A stretch of 64,000 bases of DNA from a phage, in sequence record PZ357121.2. The stretch is one strand, 5' to 3'. Both the position numbers and the translations under genes were made by a program. Below the pieces are notes generated by a model. That model was given only the letters and a program-made list of their open reading frames with translations. It searched no databases and was not told the origin of the DNA. Shown in pieces: positions 42,280 to 63,991 of this stretch; position 1 is the stretch's first letter; every line of letters begins with the position of its first letter.

Positions 42280-43101
42280 TTAAGATTTCCAAACAGTATT
42301 CGCAGAGAAACGTTTTCCTTTTGACATAAACTGCTGAGTAGGTAACATGATTATGTTAGCCCAGTCTTTAGGAGCTATTTCTGTTATTGTTCCTCTAATG
42401 TGGCCTGGCAGGTATGCTTTAATCATTTTGTCAGCACCTTGAAATCCTTTCACCTTGCTCCAGTCTATCTTAAACTTTGTGTTATTAGTAATAGTAGTTG
42501 TGCTAGCATATTGCTTCAGCAATTCTTCAAGAAACTGTTGTCGTGCTTTAGGTGGGATATAGTGCAAGTTTAACCCATACATCAAATTATGTTTACCTAA
42601 TCCTAAATAAATAATCAAAGGATATCGGTCCCAGTATGGCAAAGTATCTTTATGTTTAGCATCATACACGTAAGTATAAATTTTGCCTGGCGTAGGCTTG
42701 ACTACTTTATGACCTTTTACACTTTTCTTAATTGTTTCAACAAACCACTTAGATGATTTGTTGTTTACTGCTGCGCCTTCATTTCTAATCTTTTCTCGTA
42801 TTGAACTGCGAAACGAGTTTATCATCAGAAGTTGACGTTCTTGCTTATTGAGTTTATTTTTAGGTTTAGATTCAAGCGTTTCAATTTTCTGTGCAGTCTT
42901 AATAGATGATGCATATCTAGACATTGCAGATGTAAACGACGAGTATTTTATTCCTTTTGATTCTGCAAATGCTTTTGCAGTGATTCCTTTCTCTTTAGCT
43001 TTCTTGTATTCTAATCCTATCTCAATCCATTTTCTTTCATTCATAGACTGAGCAATCTTAGTGGCTTGTACGCCTTCAGATATAATTTGGAATATGCTCA
43101 T
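42280..43101 (-). CDS. 2: DNA end protector protein gp2
   Basis: 273 aa; position and length match T4 gp2; start overlaps stop of upstream endonuclease gene (ATGA). Confidence 0.75.
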
Positions 43102-43748
43102 TCAACTTTCCTCATTTTACAATTATCACCATGCCAACGTTTATAAGGCGCAGGTTTACATTCTATACCGCAGTATTGGCATATCTTATTATGAGTATTT
43201 AAGTATCCTAATCTCATGTTTTCCTTTTCTTCAGGAGTTCTATTTCGTCCTGTAAGAGTATTTTTTATTTTGTCTCTAATCTCTTTGGGCATTATCCTGC
43301 CTCGGCCTGCTTTACCTATTTTAGCTTTATGCTCTTCGGATAATTTCTTACCCTTCTTAGCTAAACTCATTTTCTTTTTAGATTCTTCGGAAATAGGACC
43401 TAATTTTCTACCTCTGGATGAATCGCCTATTCTTTTTCGCACATCAATAGAACGGCCTCGTCCTCCCTTTCCTCCTAGGTCTATATTATATGTATCTTCT
43501 CTATCCACAAAAGATTGATCAACTAATTCTGCTTCCTTTTGGAAAGCCATTTCTTCATTTAGTAATTCGTCACCGGTATCATACACATATAATACTTCTT
43601 TTACAAAATTATCTAATCCGTATTTAGCATGGGCTTTTAAGATAATTTTACCTGTTCCTTTATAAGAATCATCCGGATTATTAGTTTTATGAACACCTAT
43701 ATAAATTTTATTATTTACGATGTTAGTTATTTTATATACAGTATACAT
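43098..43748 (-). CDS. free-standing GIY-YIG homing endonuclease (Seg-like) between genes 4 and 2
   Basis: 216 aa; canonical GIY-YIG N-terminus [21 protein letters not shown]; NUMOD3 repeats; C-terminal zinc finger CQYCGIECK...HGDNCK. Confidence 0.75.
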
Positions 43749-43749
43749 A

Positions 43750-44199
43750 TCATCCCTTATATCCTAAACGACGTAAACCGTCTTCTGTGAGAATTCTGAA
43801 TTTTATATTTCTCTTTTCTGCGACAGCAGAAGCAGCTTTCCATTTATCACAGTTCACAGACCACACGTAGATCTCGTTCATATAACGTTTCTTTGCTGCG
43901 GTCGTAAGATTTGCAGGCTTAATAGGTGGCTGAGTTTCTTTCTTTGGTTTTATTTCTACAAAGAACTCTTGACCTGATGCATCTTTCATCCATATGTCCA
44001 TATAGTATCGACGTTTCTTACCTTCGGCATTACAAAAATATGGAATTACTGCTGTTTCACTACCCCATGCAATAATTTCTGGATTTTTATCTAACCATTC
44101 GAAAAAGAATTTTTCCCAGTTTGAACGATACGTTATTTTGGTATGGTCTCCACGGTATTTTTTTAAATTTTTTGGGACCCATTTACCAGAGTAGGCCAT
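43750..44199 (-). CDS. 4: head completion protein gp4
   Basis: ORF track 43750..44343; ATG at 44197-44199 (MAYSGKWVPKNLKKYRGD) with GGAGGA upstream gives 149 aa, matching T4 gp4 length and N-terminus. Confidence 0.8.
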   Translation of the reverse strand: MAYSGKWVPKNLKKYRGDHTKITYRSNWEKFFFEWLDKNPEIIAWGSETAVIPYFCNAEGKKRRYYMDIWMKDASGQEFFVEIKPKKETQPPIKPANLTTAAKKRYMNEIYVWSVNCDKWKAASAVAEKRNIKFRILTEDGLRRLGYKG

Positions 44200-44210
44200 G
44201 TTGTCCTCCT

Positions 44211-44218
44211 TATAAATA
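44211..44218 (+). promoter_or_regulatory. T4 late promoter TATAAATA upstream of gene 53
   Basis: exact TATAAATA about 43 nt before the gene 53 start, in the divergent 4/53 intergenic region. Confidence 0.6.
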
Positions 44219-44260
44219 GTATTATTATTTATACCAATTTCATATTGGAAGGAGACTATC

Positions 44261-44836
44261 TTGTTATTTACATTCTTCGACCCAATAGGATACAGTGCTA
44301 AAACAGTTAATAAGAATGCACCTACTATTCCTATGACAGACATATTTCGTAACTATAAAGAGTACTTTAAGCGTGTTGCTGCCAATTATAGATTACGTTC
44401 TTATTATATTAAAGGCTCTCCGCGTCCTGAAGAACTAGCAAACATAATTTATGGCAACCCTCAATTATACTGGGTCCTTTTGATGTGTAATGACAACTAT
44501 GATCCGTATTATGGTTGGATTACATCTCAGGAAGCAGCGTATCAAGCTTCTATTCAGAAATATGCTAATGCCGGCGGCGACCAAGTTCTTTATCATATTA
44601 ATGAAAATCATGAGAAATTTTACAATTTGGTTTCATATCCAGACGAGCCTTTAGTGTGGTACGATAAAGGTGATGAAGCTCGTAAGTATCCGCAATATAA
44701 AGGACCTTTAGCTGCAGTAGATACTTATGAAGCTGCAGTATTAGATAATGAAAAACTTCGTAAAATAAAAATTGTTGCAAAAGAAGATATAAACTCGTTT
44801 ATCACAGATTTGATTCGTGAGATGGAGATTGCATAA
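44261..44836 (+). CDS. 53: baseplate wedge protein gp53
   Basis: 191 aa; TTG start with GGAG upstream; position between 4 and 5. Confidence 0.75.
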   Translation: MLFTFFDPIGYSAKTVNKNAPTIPMTDIFRNYKEYFKRVAANYRLRSYYIKGSPRPEELANIIYGNPQLYWVLLMCNDNYDPYYGWITSQEAAYQASIQKYANAGGDQVLYHINENHEKFYNLVSYPDEPLVWYDKGDEARKYPQYKGPLAAVDTYEAAVLDNEKLRKIKIVAKEDINSFITDLIREMEIA

Positions 44837-46572
44837 TGGAAATGATTAGCAGTAGCCTTAATTGGTTCGTGGGTGTTGTCGAGGACAGAATGGACCCGTT
44901 AAAACAAGGGCGAGTTCGAGTTCGAGTCGTTGGTCTTCATCCGGCGCAGAGAACACAAGGTGATGTACAAGGTATTCCTACAGAAAAACTTCCATGGATG
45001 ACTGTTATTCAACCTATTACGTCTGCATCAATGTCAGGTATTGGTGGTTCTGTTACAGGTCCTGTTGAAGGAACTCGAGTATATGGTCATTTCTTAGACA
45101 AATGGAAAACAAACGGGATTGTACTTGGTACATATGGCGGAATAGTACGTGAAAAGCCTAATAGACTTGAAGGTTTTTCAGACCCGACAGGTCAGTATCC
45201 GCGACGTTTAGGTAATGATACGAACGTATTAAACCAAGGTGGTGAAGCTGGTTATTATTCGAACTCTAACGTAATTCAAGATAACAACTTGGATTACGGT
45301 ATAAACCCAGATGATACAGATTTAGCAAATATTCCAGAAGATGACGACCCTAATTTTACAATAACAGAAATGTTACGTCGTGATGAAGGTCTTCGTGATA
45401 AAGTGTATTGGGACCATCTCGGGTATCCTACAGTAGGTATTGGACACCTTATCGTAATGGAAAAGACCCGAGATATGTCTCGAATTAATAAATTGTTATC
45501 TGATCAAGTAGGGCGTGAAGTAACAGGAAATCCGGGAACTATTACATTAGAAGAAGCAACAGCGTTATTTGAGAAGGACCTTTCTAAGATGCAGAAAGAC
45601 ATTCGTTCTAATTCTAAAGTAGGTCCTGTTTATGCTAAAATGAACAGATCTCGCCAAATGGCATTAGAAAACATGTGCTTCCAAATGGGCGTTGGTGGTG
45701 TAGCAAAATTCAATACTATGCTTAAAGCAATGGCCACAGGTGATTGGAAAACCGCATACAAATCTGGACGCGATTCGTTATGGTTCCAACAGACTAAAGG
45801 GCGTGCTTCACGTGTAACAACAATTATTTTAACTGGTAACATGGAATCATATGGCGTTCCTGTTAAAACACCACCTTCACCAGGAGTTGGTGCTGATTTA
45901 GTTACTAGAAATACCGATCCAGAAGACCCAGCTGGTCCTCCTGTTCCGTTAGATTCGCGTATCCTTTTTAAAGAACCGGAATCAAGTTATCGTGGTGAGT
46001 ATCCATACGTTCATGCTATGGAAACAGAAAGTGGTCATATCCAAGAATTTGACGATACTCCAGGTAATGAACGTTATCGCTTAGTTCATCCAACAGGGTC
46101 ATATGAGGAAGTTTCTCCGTCTGGGCGTCGTACTCGTAAAACTGTAGAAGACCTTTTTGACATCACTAATGGCGATGGGAACTTCTTGATTTCTGGTGAT
46201 AAACTTGTTAACGTTGGTGCTAACGAAATATATTATAACATGGCAGACCGCCTCCATCAAATAGATGGCAATGACACAATCTTTATTCGTGGTAACCAAT
46301 CTAAAACTGTTGAAGGCGATGGAACTCTTTACGTTAAGGGTAATATCAAAATAGTTGTTGACGGAAATGCAGATATTCTTGTTAAAGGTGATGCTAAAAC
46401 TCAGGTCGAAGGGAATCATGATTACACCGTCAATGGAAACGTTAAATGGACTGTTAACGGTAATGTTGATATGACTGTTGCCGGGGATTGGGCAGAAACA
46501 ATGTCTACAATGAGCTCAGTAGCTTCAGGACAATACACAATTGATGGTAGCCGTGTGGATGTCGGGTTATAA
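44836..46572 (+). CDS. 5: baseplate central spike / cell-puncturing lysozyme gp5
   Basis: 578 aa; N-terminal OB-fold region, internal lysozyme domain (…LRRDEGLRDKVYWDHLGYPTVGIGHL…), C-terminal beta-helix VxGxxxxxx repeats. Confidence 0.9.
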   Translation: MEMISSSLNWFVGVVEDRMDPLKQGRVRVRVVGLHPAQRTQGDVQGIPTEKLPWMTVIQPITSASMSGIGGSVTGPVEGTRVYGHFLDKWKTNGIVLGTYGGIVREKPNRLEGFSDPTGQYPRRLGNDTNVLNQGGEAGYYSNSNVIQDNNLDYGINPDDTDLANIPEDDDPNFTITEMLRRDEGLRDKVYWDHLGYPTVGIGHLIVMEKTRDMSRINKLLSDQVGREVTGNPGTITLEEATALFEKDLSKMQKDIRSNSKVGPVYAKMNRSRQMALENMCFQMGVGGVAKFNTMLKAMATGDWKTAYKSGRDSLWFQQTKGRASRVTTIILTGNMESYGVPVKTPPSPGVGADLVTRNTDPEDPAGPPVPLDSRILFKEPESSYRGEYPYVHAMETESGHIQEFDDTPGNERYRLVHPTGSYEEVSPSGRRTRKTVEDLFDITNGDGNFLISGDKLVNVGANEIYYNMADRLHQIDGNDTIFIRGNQSKTVEGDGTLYVKGNIKIVVDGNADILVKGDAKTQVEGNHDYTVNGNVKWTVNGNVDMTVAGDWAETMSTMSSVASGQYTIDGSRVDVGL

Positions 46573-46591: not shown

Positions 46592-47455
46592 ATGAAGAAA
46601 TCCAAAACCATACAATTCCGTTACATTTATAAATCAACAGTAACCAACCCAAAGGGGTTGGTTCGAATATATATAGGAAAGCATGAATCCAGATATTTTA
46701 ATCTAGAGGATGATAATTACGTAGGAAGCGGGGATTATATACAAAAGATTAAAAACAAACCAGGCTATGCTATAGATTTCGAAATTATCGAATTCGTTTC
46801 AACACTCGATGTTTTAAATGAAAGAGAAAAATTTTGGATATCTGAATATAGAAAAACAGGCCAGTGTGTTAATATAAAAGACGGTGGAGATGGATTTTCT
46901 TCAAACGATTTAAAACGAATGTGGTCTAATCCTGAGTATCGAGAAACTCAACTTAAAGCTTTGGCAAAAGGAAAATCTACAAAAGAATTTTCAGAAAAAA
47001 TTTCAAAAATTAATAAACTTAGATGTTCGGAATCGGAATATCGAAAGAAAATGAGTAATGCGATGAAAACTGCTTTTGAAAATGATCCCACATTAAAAAT
47101 TCGTATTTCTAATACTGTCAAATCTTTATGGAAATCCGATGAATATAGAAACAAATTAATTAATCATCCAGGAAAAATAGAAGGAACGAAAAAATCCTGG
47201 AATAATCCTTTAATAAGAAAATCAAGATTAGATACTAGAAATAAAAAACTAAGATCAGTTGAACCTTGGATTAGTATTGAAAAAGTCAAAAAACTTTGGG
47301 AGGATTTGGGAAAACCTCATCCGCAGAAATATAAATGGTTTAGAGAAAAAGCAATTGAACATAATCTACCGGATGTAAGTTATAACGCAATTTTAAAAGC
47401 ATTGAAAAAATGTGATTATAAATTTACACCATTGGAGAATTCAGTAATTGGCTAA
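46592..47455 (+). CDS. free-standing GIY-YIG homing endonuclease, SegC-like (between 5 and 5.1)
   Basis: 287 aa; FRYIYKSTVTNPKGLVRIYIGKHE, YVGSGDY, KFWISEY; repeated W-x-N/S-x-EYR motifs. Confidence 0.7.
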   Translation: MKKSKTIQFRYIYKSTVTNPKGLVRIYIGKHESRYFNLEDDNYVGSGDYIQKIKNKPGYAIDFEIIEFVSTLDVLNEREKFWISEYRKTGQCVNIKDGGDGFSSNDLKRMWSNPEYRETQLKALAKGKSTKEFSEKISKINKLRCSESEYRKKMSNAMKTAFENDPTLKIRISNTVKSLWKSDEYRNKLINHPGKIEGTKKSWNNPLIRKSRLDTRNKKLRSVEPWISIEKVKKLWEDLGKPHPQKYKWFREKAIEHNLPDVSYNAILKALKKCDYKFTPLENSVIG

Positions 47456-57742: not shown

Positions 57743-59322
57743 GTAATAACAATACATACCAACACGTTTCAAACGAATCCATTTACGTTGAATTCGACCC
57801 AGTAGGGTCGAATTTTCCAGATACAGTCACTAATGTCCAAGCCGCATTAGCTGCTATTTCTCCTTCAGGTGTTAATGGCGTACCGGAAGCAACAACTACT
57901 ACACCTGGAATTATTCAAATAGCCACTCCACAAGAAGTTATTGATGGATTAGATAATAATAAAGCTGTTACTCCGGCATCACTGAATGCTCGTCTACAAT
58001 ATCCTAATGCAACCGAAACTCAATATGGTTTAACTCGTTATGCTACTGAAGATGAAGCAGTAGCCGGAGCTATTGACGATGCATCAATTACTCCGCTTAA
58101 ATTGAATCAAAAAATAGACAATGTATTCCAGACAAAAGTATCAACAGAAGCAACAAATGGTGTAATTAAAATTTCAACTTCTGCTGCGGCATTAGCTGGT
58201 TCTGACGATACAACGGCAATGACTCCGTTAAAAACGCAACAATTAGCAATTAAACTTATTTCGCAAATTGCTCCAAATAATAGTGACGCCACCGAATCTA
58301 TTACAGGTGTTGTTCGTTTAGCTACAGTTGCACAAGCACAACAAGGCACCCTGCGTGAAGGCTATGCAATTTCACCTTATACCTTTATGAATTCAGTAGC
58401 ATCAGAAACTAATAAAGGTGTCGTTAAACTAGGGACACAGACTGAAGTAAATAGTAACAACTCTTCAGTTGTAGTGACCGGCGCAACATTAAACGGGCGT
58501 GGGGCTACAACTTCTTTACGTGGAGTTGTTCGTTTAACTACACAAGCGGGTAGCCAATCAGGTGGTGATGGTTCTTCTGCCCTTGCTTGGAATGCTGATG
58601 TTATCCACCAACGAGGCGGTCAAACTATTAATGGCACTCTTCGCATTAATAATACGTTGACGGTTGGTTCTGGTGGTGCTAATATAACGGGTAATGTCAA
58701 TATGACCGGTGGTTATATTCAAGGCAATCGTATTGTGACTCAAAATGAATTAGACCGAATTCTTCCAGTTGGCGCTATTACAATGTGGGCTGCAGATAGT
58801 TTGCCGAGTTCGGACTGGCGTTTCTGTCACGGTGGGACCGTTTCTGCTTCAGAATGTCCGGTATATGCTTCCAGAATTGGGACACGATATGGTGGTAGTT
58901 CTTCTAACCCAGGCTTGCCCGATATGCGTGGATTATTTGTTCGCGGCTCAGGTCGTGGTAACCATTTAACTAACCCTAATGTTAATGGTAATGACCAATT
59001 CGGTAAGCCTCGTCTGGCGGTAGGTTGTACCGGTGGATATGTTGGTGAGGTGCAAAAACAACAGATGTCATATCATAAGCATGCTGGCGGTTTTGGTGAA
59101 CATGACGATGCAGGAGCATTCGGTAATACTCGTCGTTCAAACTTTGTTGGTACTCGTAAAGGACTTGACTGGGATAACCGTTCGTATTTTACTAACGATG
59201 GATATGAAATTGATCCAGCGTCTCAGCGTAACTCTAAATATACCCTGAATCGTCCAGAATTAATTGGAAATGAAACTCGCCCATGGAATATTTCTTTAAA
59301 CTATATCATTAAGGTAAAATAA
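57739..59322 (+). CDS. 12: short tail fiber protein gp12
   Basis: 527 aa, identical length to T4 gp12; conserved C-terminal receptor-binding region. Confidence 0.9.
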
Positions 59323-60770
59323 TGACTGATATAACTCTGGTAGATTTACCATATGTTGACGGCCCACCAGACGCGGGTCAGAGTCGTATTGAATGGATTA
59401 AAAACGATGAAGAAATAACAGGTGCTGACACAAAATACGGTTCTGAAGGTGTAATGAACCGTCCTATTGTTGAAGTTCAACGTAACGTAGAAGCGTTAGA
59501 TGTTAATATTAAAACTATAGCATCTTCTTTGAATACGGCCAATGAAGATATCAAAGCTATTCAAGGTATTTTAGATGTTTCTGGGGATGTTGATGCTCTT
59601 GCACAGATAGGCCAGAACACCCAAGATATTGATGTCATTAAAGTCACAATTCAAACCCATGCTAGTGAATTGAATGATTTGAATGAACATATTGATGCGA
59701 ATACTGATGATATTGGTGTTTATAATCAGGAAACAGATTCAGTTTATAGAACTGTTCGTAACGACCTGCTTTGGATTAAAAATGAATTAGGACAATACAC
59801 TGGTCAAGATATTAATGGGGTTCCTACTCCAGGAAATGATAGCACTGGTATGAAACGCCGTATTATGACTAATAGCTCCGTAATTGTTGACCACGGTGTT
59901 CGTTTATCCGATTTAGAAACTAAATTTGCTGATTCTGACGTCGGCTCTTTAACTATTGAAGTCGAACACTTGCGCGAAGAAATGGGACCTCGCACTTCTT
60001 TCACTACTCCAGTGTTTAGTCGTCTTTCCAGTATTGATTTAACTTTGTCACGTCAAAATGCTGACTTGGATGGCATTAAACAGTCTATTGGGTATCCTAA
60101 TACGACTTCTATTATTACTACAACTAATGCGAATAGTTCAGCAATAAACGACATTAATCTTGAGCTCAATCAATCTGGTGGTATTAAACCTCGTTTGACT
60201 ACAGTAGAAACTGCCATTGGCGCCGATGATTTGCCTACTACAATCCAAGGACGTATTAAACTCAATACTGATGCTATCGGAGCATTGAATACTGTTGTCG
60301 GCTCTGATTCTTCGTCAGGATTGCGTTTTAATGTGTCATGGTTAAATAACGTAGTTGGTGTTGACGCTTCAGGTGGGAAACCGGAACCAGACGGCTCTTT
60401 GCTTTATCGTACTCGAGAGCTTGAAGGAACTATCGGTGGGCTGAGTAATGACATTCAGAACATTCAAACTGATGTTGGGACTAATTCCACAGGAATTAAG
60501 GGTTCTGTAAACACATTAAATACTCTTATAAATGGCACCAACCCAAATGGTTCGACTGTTGAAGAACGCGGTATATTGCCTACAGTTAAAAGTCATGATA
60601 CGACAATTAATGGTTTAACTTCTAGAATTGCTACTCTTGAAACTGATTTGGCCGCTGCAGAAGCTGAAATCCAAACTCTTAAGGACGCTGGATATATTGA
60701 AGATGCTCCTTCAGACGGTAAATTCTATGTTCGCAAAGATGGCGCATGGGTTGAACTTCCTACAGCTTAA
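59322..60770 (+). CDS. wac: fibritin (whisker antigen control) wac
   Basis: 482 aa; coiled-coil segments and C-terminal foldon-like GYIEDAPSDGKFYVRKDGAWVELPTA. Confidence 0.85.
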   Translation: MTDITLVDLPYVDGPPDAGQSRIEWIKNDEEITGADTKYGSEGVMNRPIVEVQRNVEALDVNIKTIASSLNTANEDIKAIQGILDVSGDVDALAQIGQNTQDIDVIKVTIQTHASELNDLNEHIDANTDDIGVYNQETDSVYRTVRNDLLWIKNELGQYTGQDINGVPTPGNDSTGMKRRIMTNSSVIVDHGVRLSDLETKFADSDVGSLTIEVEHLREEMGPRTSFTTPVFSRLSSIDLTLSRQNADLDGIKQSIGYPNTTSIITTTNANSSAINDINLELNQSGGIKPRLTTVETAIGADDLPTTIQGRIKLNTDAIGALNTVVGSDSSSGLRFNVSWLNNVVGVDASGGKPEPDGSLLYRTRELEGTIGGLSNDIQNIQTDVGTNSTGIKGSVNTLNTLINGTNPNGSTVEERGILPTVKSHDTTINGLTSRIATLETDLAAAEAEIQTLKDAGYIEDAPSDGKFYVRKDGAWVELPTA

Positions 60771-60775
60771 TGAAA

Positions 60776-60793
60776 AGGGCCTTCGGGCCCTAA
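60776..60793 (+). terminator. terminator-like hairpin after wac (GGGCC-TTCG-GGCCC)
   Basis: plus strand aaagggccttcgggcccta; weak T-run. Confidence 0.45.
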
Positions 60794-60802
60794 AGGATTT
60801 AT

Positions 60803-61729
60803 ATGTCAGGTTATAATGCACAAAACCCTAAAGAATTAAAGGACGTAATATTACGTCGTTTAGGCGCTCCTATTGTAAATGTTGAATTAACTACAGACCA
60901 AATTTATGATTGTATTTCACGAGCGTTAGAACTTTATGGCGAATACCATTTTGACGGGTTGAATAAAGGTTTCCACGTATTTTTTGTTGATGACGAAGAA
61001 AAATACCGTCATGGTGTATTTGATATGCGTGGTTCTAATGTATTTGCTGTAACAAGAATTATAAGAACAAATGTTGGCTCTATTACTTCAATGGATGGTA
61101 ATGCAACTTATCCATGGTTCACTGATTTCCTTTTAGGAATGGCAGGTGTTTCAGGTGGTATGGGTAGTAATTGTGGTAAATTCTACGGCCCGAACGCTTT
61201 TGGCGCTGACCTCGGGTATTATTCTCAATTAGTATCTTATATGGGTATGCTTCAAGATATGATTGCTCCTCTTCCAGATTTTTGGTTTAACTCTGCAAAC
61301 GAGCAATTAAAAGTAATGGGTAACTTTAGACAGAAAGATGTCATTATCGTTGAATCGTATGTTCGCTCTTATATCGAGACCCATAAGATGGTAGGAAATA
61401 CAGTAGGGTACGGTCAGGTCGGTCCTCGTGATTCATGGTCTATTTCTGAACGTTATGATAATCCAGACCATAATTTGGTCGGACGTCGAGTTGGTGAAGA
61501 TCCTGCAACTAAACAAGGCGCATATAACAACCGCTGGGTTAAAGATTATGCAACTGCATTAGCTAAAGAGCTTAATGGACAAATTCTTGCTAAACATCAA
61601 GGTATGATGTTACCTGGTGGCGTCACTGTTGATGGTGTTCGATTAATTGAAGAAGCTCGTTTAGAGAAAGAAGCTTTACGAGAAGAGTTATATTTACTGG
61701 ACCCTCCTGCAGGTATTTTGGTAGGTTAA
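60803..61729 (+). CDS. 13: neck protein gp13
   Basis: 308 aa; position after wac. Confidence 0.85.
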
Positions 61730-61730
61730 T

Positions 61731-62366
61731 ATGGCAACATACTACAGATTGTATATTACAACATTTGAAACATCCACCGGTATAAAGATTTATGGTGGTA
61801 AACACAAATCAGTTTACGAAGACCCTTCAAAAGACCCTTATACTGGGTCTGGCACCTTTATACGAAGGGCCAAAAGAAAATACGGTCCGTCTTGTATAAA
61901 AGAAATTATATGGTCTAAGCCATTTGAATCTAAAGCTCTAATGGATGAAGCTGAAGAGTTACTGGTAGATGAATTATCCATTTTAGAAAATTGCGCAAAT
62001 CTTGTTAAAGGTGGTGCAGGCGGAAGGTCGTATATTAACCCAGAAGATAATCCATCTATAGGACAAAAACGTTCAGCCCAATCTAAAAAGAAAATGTCTG
62101 ACGCCGCAAAATCAAGAAAATGGACTGAAGAAGGGTTAAGAAAACGTAAAGAATCTACAGCAAGAATGTGGAAAGATTTCAAACATAGACATCCTGATTT
62201 TTCTGGTTCAAAAAATCCAGCAGCTCGAAAAGTTAGTGTAAATGGTAAAATATTTAACACCTGCAAAGAATGTGGTGAAGAATTTAATATCACATCAAGC
62301 GCGGTTATAGGCCGATGCAAAAACAACAAACCTAAATGGGCAGGATGGAATTATGTCGACGTATAA
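61731..62366 (+). CDS. free-standing GIY-YIG-like homing endonuclease between neck genes 13 and 14
   Basis: 211 aa; [24 protein letters not shown]; NUMOD3-like repeats; C-terminal CKECGEE...GRCKNN; starts 1 nt after gene 13 stop and overlaps gene 14 start by 14 nt. Confidence 0.6.
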
Positions 62367-63117
62367 TTCAAATTTATTTGCAAAGTTAGAAAACCGAGAA
62401 GGCTATTCTAAAACTAATGAAACAGAGATTTTAAACAAATACGTGAACTTCAACAAATACGAAAATAGCCAGACATTAGCCGATGTTCTAGTGGCAGAAA
62501 GCATACAGATGCGCGGTATTGAATGTTTTTATGTTCCACGTGAATATGTTGCCGTGGACCTTATCTTTGGTGAGGACCTTAAAAATAAATTTACTAAAGC
62601 ATGGAAATTTGCTGCATATCTGAACTCTTTTGAAGGTTATGAAGGAGCGAAATCGTTCTTCAGCAACTTCGGAATGCAAGTTCAAGACGAAGTTACATTA
62701 TCTATTAACCCGGGTCTTTTCAAACACCAGGTCAACAATCAGGAGCCCAAGGAAGGTGATTTAATATACTTCCCAATGGACAACAGTTTGTTTGAGATTA
62801 ACTGGGTTGAACCATATGACCCATTCTATCAAGTAGGTAAAAATGCGATTCGTAAAATTACTGCAGGCAAGTTTATTTACTCTGGCGAAGAAATCAATCC
62901 GGTGCTTCAGAAAAATGAAGGTATCAATATACCTGAATTTAGTGACTTGGAACTTAACCCTGTTAGAAATCTTGACGGTATCCATGACATTAATATCGAT
63001 GAGTATTCTGAAGTTGAGCAAATCAATTCAGAGGCAAGTGAATACGTTGAGCCGTATGTAGTAGTTAACAACCGTGGTAGACAAAATTCACCATTTGACG
63101 ATGGGTTTATGAATTAA
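62353..63117 (+). CDS. 14: neck protein gp14
   Basis: 254 aa. Confidence 0.85.
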
Positions 63118-63166
63118 TAAATAGATAAGATAAAGCAAACACCGGTCGAAAGGCCGGTTAGGAGAA

Positions 63167-63991
63167 ATGATGTTTGGTTATTTTTACAACTCGTCGTTCA
63201 GGCGATATATCACAATGATGGGCGATTTGTTTTCAAATATCCAAGTTAACCGTCAATTGTCTACAGGCAATAAATTAATTAGAGTTCCTATTACGTATGC
63301 ATCTAAAGAGCACTTTATGATGAAACTTAATAAATGGACCTCTATAAACTCACAAGAAGATGTGGCTAAAGTCGAAACTATTCTACCACGTATAAATCTC
63401 CAAATGGTAGATTTCGTTTATAACCCGACGTTTAAAACGAATATATTGAATAACTCTCTTTTGAGTAAATCGACTAAGGATATTGTAGACCAATACAACC
63501 CATCACCAATTAAAATGATTTTTGAACTGAGCATCTTTACTCGTTATGAAGATGATATGTTCCAAATCGTTGAGCAAATTATTCCATATTTTCAGCCGCA
63601 TTTTAATACGACTATGATTGAGCAATATGGGCAGGATATTCCATTTGAAAGGGATATTAAAGTCGTATGGATGGCAGCAGCAATGGATGAACAAATAGAC
63701 GGTGATAATTTATCCCGTCGACGTTTAGAGTGGTCATTAACATTTGAAGTAAATGGATGGATGTATCCTCCGGTAGGCGCAGCTGAAGGCCTTATTAAAA
63801 CGACTTATCTTGATTTTCATGCTAATGAGCGAGACCTTCAAACAGCCGCCAGTGTTTTTGAATCAGTTGATACAGAAATTAAACCGAGAGACGTTGAAGC
63901 ACAAGATTGGAATGGTGAAGTTGAACAAACTTATACTCATGATATTCCAATCCCGACTCCACCAACCCCTCCTGGTCCTAGAAAACAATAA
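63167..63991 (+). CDS. 15: tail sheath stabilizer / tail terminator gp15
   Basis: 274 aa (second ATG at 63170 has better AGGAGA spacing); hairpin ACCGG-TCGAAAGG-CCGGT just upstream. Confidence 0.85.
   Translation: MMFGYFYNSSFRRYITMMGDLFSNIQVNRQLSTGNKLIRVPITYASKEHFMMKLNKWTSINSQEDVAKVETILPRINLQMVDFVYNPTFKTNILNNSLLSKSTKDIVDQYNPSPIKMIFELSIFTRYEDDMFQIVEQIIPYFQPHFNTTMIEQYGQDIPFERDIKVVWMAAAMDEQIDGDNLSRRRLEWSLTFEVNGWMYPPVGAAEGLIKTTYLDFHANERDLQTAASVFESVDTEIKPRDVEAQDWNGEVEQTYTHDIPIPTPPTPPGPRKQ

Follow-up and report, generated by a model that had tools for sequence, protein, structure and literature searches.

A Seg-type endonuclease gene at the junction of neck genes 13 and 14 in a Mosigvirus phage, with predicted homing and an apparent exchange of translation starts

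In the 64,000-nt stretch of phage DNA analysed here (the window), an ORF encoding a 211-aa protein lies between the neck genes 13 and 14. We consider it very probable that this ORF represents a Seg-type homing endonuclease gene of Mosigvirus, which homes into the 13/14 junction, exchanges the translation start of gene 14 for a new one and is protected by a recoded gene 14 5' end. The features of the region are listed in Table 1.

Table 1. Features of the gene 13/14 region (positions in the window)
Feature	Position	Strand	Remarks
Gene 13, neck protein, head-tail adaptor	60803..61729	+	PHROG 211, E 2.2e-43
Free-standing Seg-type GIY-YIG homing endonuclease ORF (predicted)	61731..62366	+	211 aa, ATG start; from the ORF list
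Left junction, ATGGCAAC	61731..61738	+	start codon and next bases, M-A-T-Y; common to gene 14 in genomes without the element
N-terminal GIY-YIG catalytic domain (predicted)	61731..62027	+	residues 1-99 (approximately)
NUMOD3-like linker helix (predicted)	62043..62099	+	residues 105-123; Pfam NUMOD3 E 0.0063
C-terminal I-TevI-type helix-turn-helix DNA-binding domain (predicted)	62199..62354	+	residues 157-208; ends K-W-x-x-W-N-Y
Putative replacement ribosome-binding region for gene 14, GGCAGGATGGAATT	62339..62352	+	encoded by conserved W-x-x-W-N codons
Overlap of endonuclease ORF and gene 14	62353..62366	+	14 nt
Gene 14, neck protein, head closure	62353..63117	+	Pfam T4_neck-protein E 2e-127; PHROG 679
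Recoded gene 14 patch	62353..62400	+	16 substitutions in 48 nt vs KAW3E185

Gene 13 ends with a TAA codon (61727-61729), and a single T (61730) separates it from the ATG of the endonuclease ORF. The TAA stop of the latter occupies positions 62364-62366, and gene 14 starts 14 nt upstream, counted from the end of this stop codon. An earlier note on this DNA had given the coordinates of the ORF, the 1-nt spacing to the gene 13 stop and the 14-nt overlap with gene 14, all of which proved exact when compared with the ORF list and the sequence. The ORF matches PHROG 314 (“homing endonuclease”) at an E value of 2.6e-37. A protein search with the 211-aa query returned 12 sequences, namely one identical protein and 11 full-length homologues with 53-64% identity. 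The identical protein is deposited at NCBI as “hypothetical protein ABH225_001158” of Shigella flexneri on a 90-kb contig, which is probably phage DNA inside a bacterial assembly. BLASTP against SegC of T4, which itself passes the cut-off of the Pfam model SegE_GIY-YIG, yielded 33% identity over the full length (E 5e-15). The Pfam GIY-YIG models gave no match at E <= 1, either for the 211-aa protein or for the homologues closest to it, and the Pfam I-TevI_DNA-bd model matched below threshold (E 9.9e-5). The GenBank labels for the ORF vary and include “putative endonuclease,” “GIY-YIG endonuclease,” “homing endonuclease,” and “intron-associated endonuclease.” The possibility of a group I intron-encoded endonuclease, as suggested by some of these labels, was rejected because no intron RNA family was found and the ORF separates two complete genes. 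An Rfam search of 60500..63300 gave zero matches at E <= 1, neither to group I introns nor to any other RNA family, and genes 13 and 14 are separate and adjacent in relatives; thus, an intron location does not apply to this ORF. In the literature searched, no description of an endonuclease at the 13/14 junction was found.

In order to deduce the domain organization of the protein, we used an AlphaFold model built on the homologue alignment, which reached a mean pLDDT of 82.7. The top structural match of the predicted fold was the catalytic domain of I-TevI. According to the predicted structure, a GIY-YIG catalytic fold is present at the N-terminus, and the C-terminal module comprises the NUMOD3 helix as well as the I-TevI-type helix-turn-helix. 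In the Pfam analysis, NUMOD3 scored 16.9 bits in the 211-aa protein, which is under the cut-off of 20.4, and 20.8 bits in the homologue of phage MX01, which is just over it. The family profile matched the I-TevI DNA-binding domain at E 2.7e-5, and hhalign aligned residues 68-209 to I-TevI with 94% probability. In this alignment, E75 and N90 of the 211-aa protein fall on the catalytic E75 and N90 of I-TevI. The family alignment of 12 sequences shows no variation at residues Y8, Y21, G22, G23, K24, E75, and N90. For the catalytic Arg27 of I-TevI, no equivalent was identified in the 211-aa protein. Positions 25-26 read H-K in the 211-aa protein and in T4 SegC, and R-H in the 11 homologues. An inactivating change at these positions was considered and set aside, since T4 SegC has H-K when aligned. 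A PDB search with the single sequence was discarded, as its top matches were spurious (interferon gamma, E 0.035) and I-TevI appeared only at E 0.12. Because there is no Pfam GIY-YIG match, the fold assignment is based on the model, the hhalign result and the link to T4 SegC. The earlier note had read the ORF as homing-endonuclease-like, a reading for which a nuclease fold is decisive. It is supported by the PHROG 314 match, by the model, whose predicted fold best matches the I-TevI catalytic domain, and by the I-TevI-type DNA-binding domain. On the basis of sequence and model, the ORF is best described as a predicted free-standing Seg-type GIY-YIG endonuclease gene with an I-TevI-like DNA-binding tail.

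A megablast search with 61000..63100 against GenBank phages revealed 99% identity to phages of Mosigvirus (e.g., S143_2 and moskry), which are T4-like Escherichia coli phages of the Straboviridae, Tevenvirinae. In total, 203 records match this query, of which 13 cover it in full and hence carry the endonuclease gene. About 140 records with at least 90% identity align in two pieces, with a junction that is 622 bp shorter and lacks the element, so that overall carriage amounts to 13 of approximately 155 close records. In these element-free relatives, as in T4, the gene 13 TAA is followed by one base and then by the gene 14 ATG. The adjacency of the two genes in T4, which the earlier note had stated, is therefore correct, with a 1-nt spacer, and holds likewise for the approximately 140 close relatives. 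The comparison of the junction across T4-like genomes, as proposed there, further revealed that the gene is sporadic and absent from T4 and thus not conserved at this site everywhere. The gene is located between complete genes 13 and 14, and its distribution is patchy among close relatives that are otherwise collinear. One of the matching records, Escherichia phage F2 (MN864145.1), is classified as Tequatrovirus, yet at this locus it shares 99% identity with the Mosigvirus window; this mismatch reflects either a wrong taxonomy label or a mosaic genome.

The alignment of genomes with and without the element is identical through ATGGCAAC, including the last 80 nt of gene 13. From this identity it follows that the endonuclease ORF begins at what was formerly the start codon of gene 14. 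The first four residues of the ORF, M-A-T-Y, are those of gene 14, and the first three codons match almost base for base. Most other family members open with M-x-Y-R-L-Y and do not have the extra A-T residues. The 3' end of gene 13 contains the Shine-Dalgarno-like sequence GGTAGG, which serves gene 14 in element-free genomes and the endonuclease ORF here. In Yersinia phage P8 (Gaprivervirus), the endonuclease ORF starts with ATGACTACTTAC, and gene 14 of element-free relatives starts with ATGGCTACTTAT. In the Dhakavirus MX01, the endonuclease ATG occupies the exact place of the gene 14 ATG in WG01. We infer that the element has captured the translation start of gene 14, as a coincidence over five bases is unlikely.

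At the right junction, the codons W-A-G-W-N of the endonuclease supply the putative new ribosome-binding region just upstream of the gene 14 ATG, and GGAG or GGA-rich bases occupy the same codons in all homologues compared. The gene 14 ATG itself takes its A and T from the end of the endonuclease Tyr codon (TAT) and its G from the base that follows. Past this Tyr, the endonuclease reads V-D-V, and codons 4-5 of gene 14 provide TAA in its frame. The tail that follows W-x-Y is unconserved across the family. Since I-TevI also ends with a related motif, K-W-N-W-F-Y, the K-W-x-x-W-N-Y motif is part of the DNA-binding domain and was co-opted for gene 14, not invented for it.

The first 48 nt of gene 14 form a recoded patch, in which 12 codons are changed in comparison to KAW3E185, eight of them synonymously and four not. 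Neither this recoded 5' end nor the shared first four codons had been mentioned in the earlier note. All six element-carrying genomes examined have the patch, and the six element-free ones do not. When five genomes with the element were aligned to five without it, all fixed differences between the groups were confined to the left junction and to 62374..62400, which is within the first 48 nt of gene 14. The first 17 residues of gp14 exist in one version in six carriers and in another in six element-free genomes, and the gp14 start of T4 departs from the element-free version only at residue 16 (T). Beyond approximately +50 of gene 14, the carriers merge with local haplotypes and split over two of these within 120 nt downstream. 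A similar pattern was found in the Dhakavirus pair MX01 and WG01, which differ at 21 positions in the first 90 nt of gene 14, at none in the next 330 nt, and at one in 420 nt upstream; 12 of the first 20 codons are changed, 11 of them synonymously. In Gaprivervirus, the patch flanks the element on both sides: the last 30 nt of gene 13 contain 10 differences, and differences are also dense over the initial 90 nt of gene 14. A patch of this kind would be expected if the target spans the 13/14 junction and has been recoded, probably to a cleavage-resistant form, and it is predicted to correspond to the endonuclease target in element-free genomes. It could also be that the patch is just donor DNA from another genus, which was brought in by recombination together with the element. 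Both readings are compatible with each other.

The endonuclease ORF of the carriers differs from the window copy at 1-4 of 636 nt, and the element together with the patch at 1-4 of 670 nt. The ORF is intact in all six carriers, whereby three encode exactly the protein of the window and the other two show few substitutions. The backgrounds are more diverged, with differences from the window at up to 27 of 927 nt in gene 13 and up to 18 of 717 nt in the rest of gene 14 (up to approximately 3%). For the comparison of the window with SQ17, 18.3 differences were expected in the 670 nt of element and patch and two were seen (Poisson P = 2e-6). The diversity was also low in comparison to F2 (P = 0.002) and phiEC1 (P = 0.003); for 308Ecol101PP, P was 0.04 with a Fisher value of 0.13, which is not significant. 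The low element diversity was thus significant in three of four pairwise comparisons. In the region from the end of gp12 through wac (58000-60770), SQ17 differs at approximately 870 of 2770 nt (approximately 31%) and groups with Shf125875, which does not carry the element. Taken together, the spread of the element within Mosigvirus appears to be recent. As an additional observation, 58000..60770 (the end of gene 12 and wac) is very polymorphic in Mosigvirus in general, with 20-60 variable sites per 100 nt. It falls into two deeply diverged allele classes, with SQ17 and Shf125875 approximately 31% from the others, and these classes do not track the presence of the endonuclease gene.

Homologues at the 13/14 junction were also found in four other groups, where they overlap gene 14 by 8 or 14 nt. 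These include MX01 (Dhakavirus, 60% identity), Yersinia phage P8 with its relatives SP18, VR26, TH40, and RZ (Gaprivervirus-like, 59%), G37-3 (Krischvirus, 56%), and Klebsiella phage Earwig (56%). A more distant homologue with 29% identity occupies the same junction in Phi1 (Krischvirus). The homologue is carried by approximately 9 of 33 Gaprivervirus-like and 4 of approximately 50 Dhakavirus-like records. Since relatives at the same site occur in several genera, with many members that lack the element, the overlap design seems to be old and its presence in each lineage patchy. The earlier note had argued that an insertion at this place must be either recent or tightly adapted. Both appear to apply, as the overlap design is common to the homologues with 53-64% identity in four other groups, and the element is nearly invariant on diverged Mosigvirus backgrounds. 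Acinetobacter homologues located beside a “head closure protein” were excluded from this set, because they lie between genes 4 and 2 and not between genes 13 and 14. The Dhakavirus record NC_055783.1 (vB_EcoM_005) contains an intact endonuclease ORF, around which the annotation fragments genes 13 and 14. It was left out as a possible decayed copy, since the fragmented neck genes look like a sequence-quality problem, real decay being possible as well. GenBank calls the 13/14 homologues of Phi1 and SP18 “segC,” even though they are away from the segC locus of T4.

With respect to expression, the exact T4 late promoter motif TATAAATA was not found on the + strand from 54366 to the end of the window, where only sites with one mismatch occur. 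Sigma-70-like and terminator-like sites were no commoner than in shuffled sequence. RNA hairpins that could hide the endonuclease start or the gene 14 start were likewise not indicated, as the folds were no stabler than those of shuffles (z +0.4 to +1.3). Between wac and gene 13, there is a GC-rich hairpin, AGGGCCTTCGGGCCCT (60776..60791), which is given as a putative terminator in the KAW3E185 record; with this hairpin in place, genes 13, endonuclease, and 14 would need read-through or an unrecognised promoter. Most simply, the endonuclease would be expressed on the late 13-14 transcript from the former translation start of gene 14. Base composition was dismissed as a sign of foreign origin, as the GC content of 0.34-0.37 is not distinctive compared to 0.36-0.41 in the flanks. 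The only compositional oddity at the element is a raised A-over-T skew (AT skew 0.23-0.27). A 163-aa antisense ORF (61838..62329, - strand) lies wholly within the endonuclease ORF and is most likely an artefact, since this skew leaves few stops on the opposite strand.

Cleavage, the target site and homing are what we infer from the identity, the predicted fold, and the anatomy of the gene, its sporadic distribution, the patch, and the low element diversity on diverged backgrounds. During co-infection, the protein would bind the 13/14 junction of an element-free relative via its C-terminal I-TevI-type helix-turn-helix, and the N-terminal GIY-YIG domain would cut near the bound junction. The break would then be repaired from the carrier genome, whereby the 622-bp element would be copied in together with the neighbouring part of gene 14. 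The carrier would be protected twice, by the insertion, which interrupts the site, and by the recoding of the first 48 nt of its gene 14. The endonuclease ORF would use the former gene 14 start codon together with the ribosome-binding site in the gene 13 3' end, and gene 14 would obtain a new Shine-Dalgarno-like sequence and ATG from the W-x-x-W-N-Y codons of the endonuclease. In this way, the element would fit into the 13-14 operon and leave it undisturbed.

It might be that the endonuclease is inactive or decaying and that the gene has been passed on by vertical inheritance and ordinary homologous recombination, with no cutting involved. This is unlikely in our view. The lack of a match to the Pfam GIY-YIG models and of an Arg27 equivalent in the alignments, and the departure of positions 25-26 from the family consensus, would fit such an explanation, as would the heavy recombination of T-even phages that is apparent from the mosaic flanks. 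However, the ORF is intact in all six carriers with a nearly unchanged protein, Y8, Y21, E75, and N90, the putative catalytic residues, do not vary among the homologues with 53-64% identity, and H25-K26 is the same as in T4 SegC. Moreover, passive inheritance would not lead one to expect an element so clearly less diverged than the sequences on either side of it. Considerably less probable still is a domesticated endonuclease whose main role would be to bind DNA and regulate the 13-14 operon, or which would exclude competing phages by its nuclease activity but would not copy itself. Translation of the ORF would begin in the start region of gene 14, and the left half of its presumed site (the gene 13 3' end and ATGGCAAC) is intact beside its own start, which resembles the operator arrangement of I-TevI (PMC2988022); in addition, the design is conserved in five phage groups. 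A needed function is nevertheless hard to reconcile with carriage in 13 of approximately 155 records, which is similarly sporadic in Dhakavirus and Gaprivervirus, and element-free phages, T4 included, keep the same operon. A chance ORF or a non-nuclease accessory gene, for which one could cite the spurious or weak matches of the single-sequence PDB search, is practically refuted already by the strong family matches, the confident model of GIY-YIG and I-TevI DNA-binding domains, and the many full-length homologues.

As a predicted Seg-type homing endonuclease, the window protein can be compared to several known systems. T4 SegC belongs to the same PHROG 314, has the same order of GIY-YIG, NUMOD3, and I-TevI-type helix-turn-helix, and shares the 33% identity reported above. 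It is likewise free-standing, lies between late structural genes and overlaps a neighbouring ORF, the overlap being 20 bp for segC (PMC2988022). In contrast, the T4 segC site is gene 5/5.1 and not the 13/14 junction, and the N-terminal domain of the window protein is more divergent, matching neither Pfam GIY-YIG nor SegE_GIY-YIG. I-TevI is encoded in the td group I intron of T4, whereas the window ORF is outside any intron. The zinc-finger segment of I-TevI has no counterpart in the window protein, where hhalign places gaps, and in the region of the Arg27 helix the window protein has a K-H-K-S...D-P-Y-x-G-S-G segment that is typical of Seg proteins. The intron-less homing of T4 SegF/SegG and the cases of SegB, SegH, and Hef are similar in that a free-standing gene lies between conserved genes and occurs sporadically in close relatives. 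In these systems, too, the target is presumed to be in the adjacent conserved gene and the carrier allele differs. The concept of intron-less homing, with the co-conversion of flanks that is expected from it, has been reviewed (PMC2988022; PMC2993671). Unlike these systems, the window element abuts both genes exactly and swaps the start of the downstream gene. Nucleases in allelic exchange, described for T5orf172 and HNH families in ICP1-like phages (PMC10448857), are alike in that a nuclease gene neighbours an essential structural gene and lies at a sharp boundary, where diverged sequence gives way to near-identical sequence. The exchanged segment differs from those cases, as it comprises only approximately 50-90 nt here.

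Two further Seg-like ORFs are present in the window. The second one (43098..43748, - strand, 215 aa; PHROG 314, E 1.6e-49) is located between a gene 4-like gene (head closure, 43750..44343) and a gene 2-like gene (DNA end protector, 42280..43101). It is equally tight, as a single base separates it from the upstream gene and it overlaps the downstream gene by 4 nt. A homologue occupies the corresponding gene 4/gene 2 junction in Acinetobacter phage phi1_092060. The third one (46592..47455, + strand, 287 aa; PHROG 314, E 7.2e-20) directly follows a gene 5-like baseplate hub/lysozyme gene (44836..46572), which is the position of segC in T4. It overlaps the next ORF (47448) by 8 nt, and an exact copy of the late-promoter motif is present just upstream, at 46568.

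Overall, the element is ordinary in kind. It is a predicted Seg-type homing endonuclease gene in a phage group known for such genes, and GenBank records already give it this label. For T4-like phages, sporadic free-standing endonuclease genes, overlaps with their neighbours, and divergence of the flanking alleles have been well documented (PMC2988022; PMC2993671; PMC10448857), and current understanding is unchanged by this element. What it adds is an uncharacterised Seg-type endonuclease with a predicted target, namely the 13/14 junction and the first approximately 50 nt of gene 14 in element-free phages. We tentatively hold it possible that the gene belongs to an old, site-dedicated lineage, which has co-evolved with the neck-gene junction in at least five T4-like groups as a self-contained module of start swap and immunity patch. 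If this were true, a nuclease would be made late in infection from the translation signal of a structural gene, the patch alone would define the recognition sequence by comparison, and the element would represent a natural test of a selfish gene entering a tightly coupled operon at no cost. As the same element is found at the same junction in several genera, it could mark recombination between T4-like phages. The case offers a clear example of how a homing endonuclease gene may enter a translationally tight late operon and leave it unbroken, by taking one start and donating another. Worth keeping are the exact start-site swap, the patch that predicts a target, and the recurrence of this design across genera.
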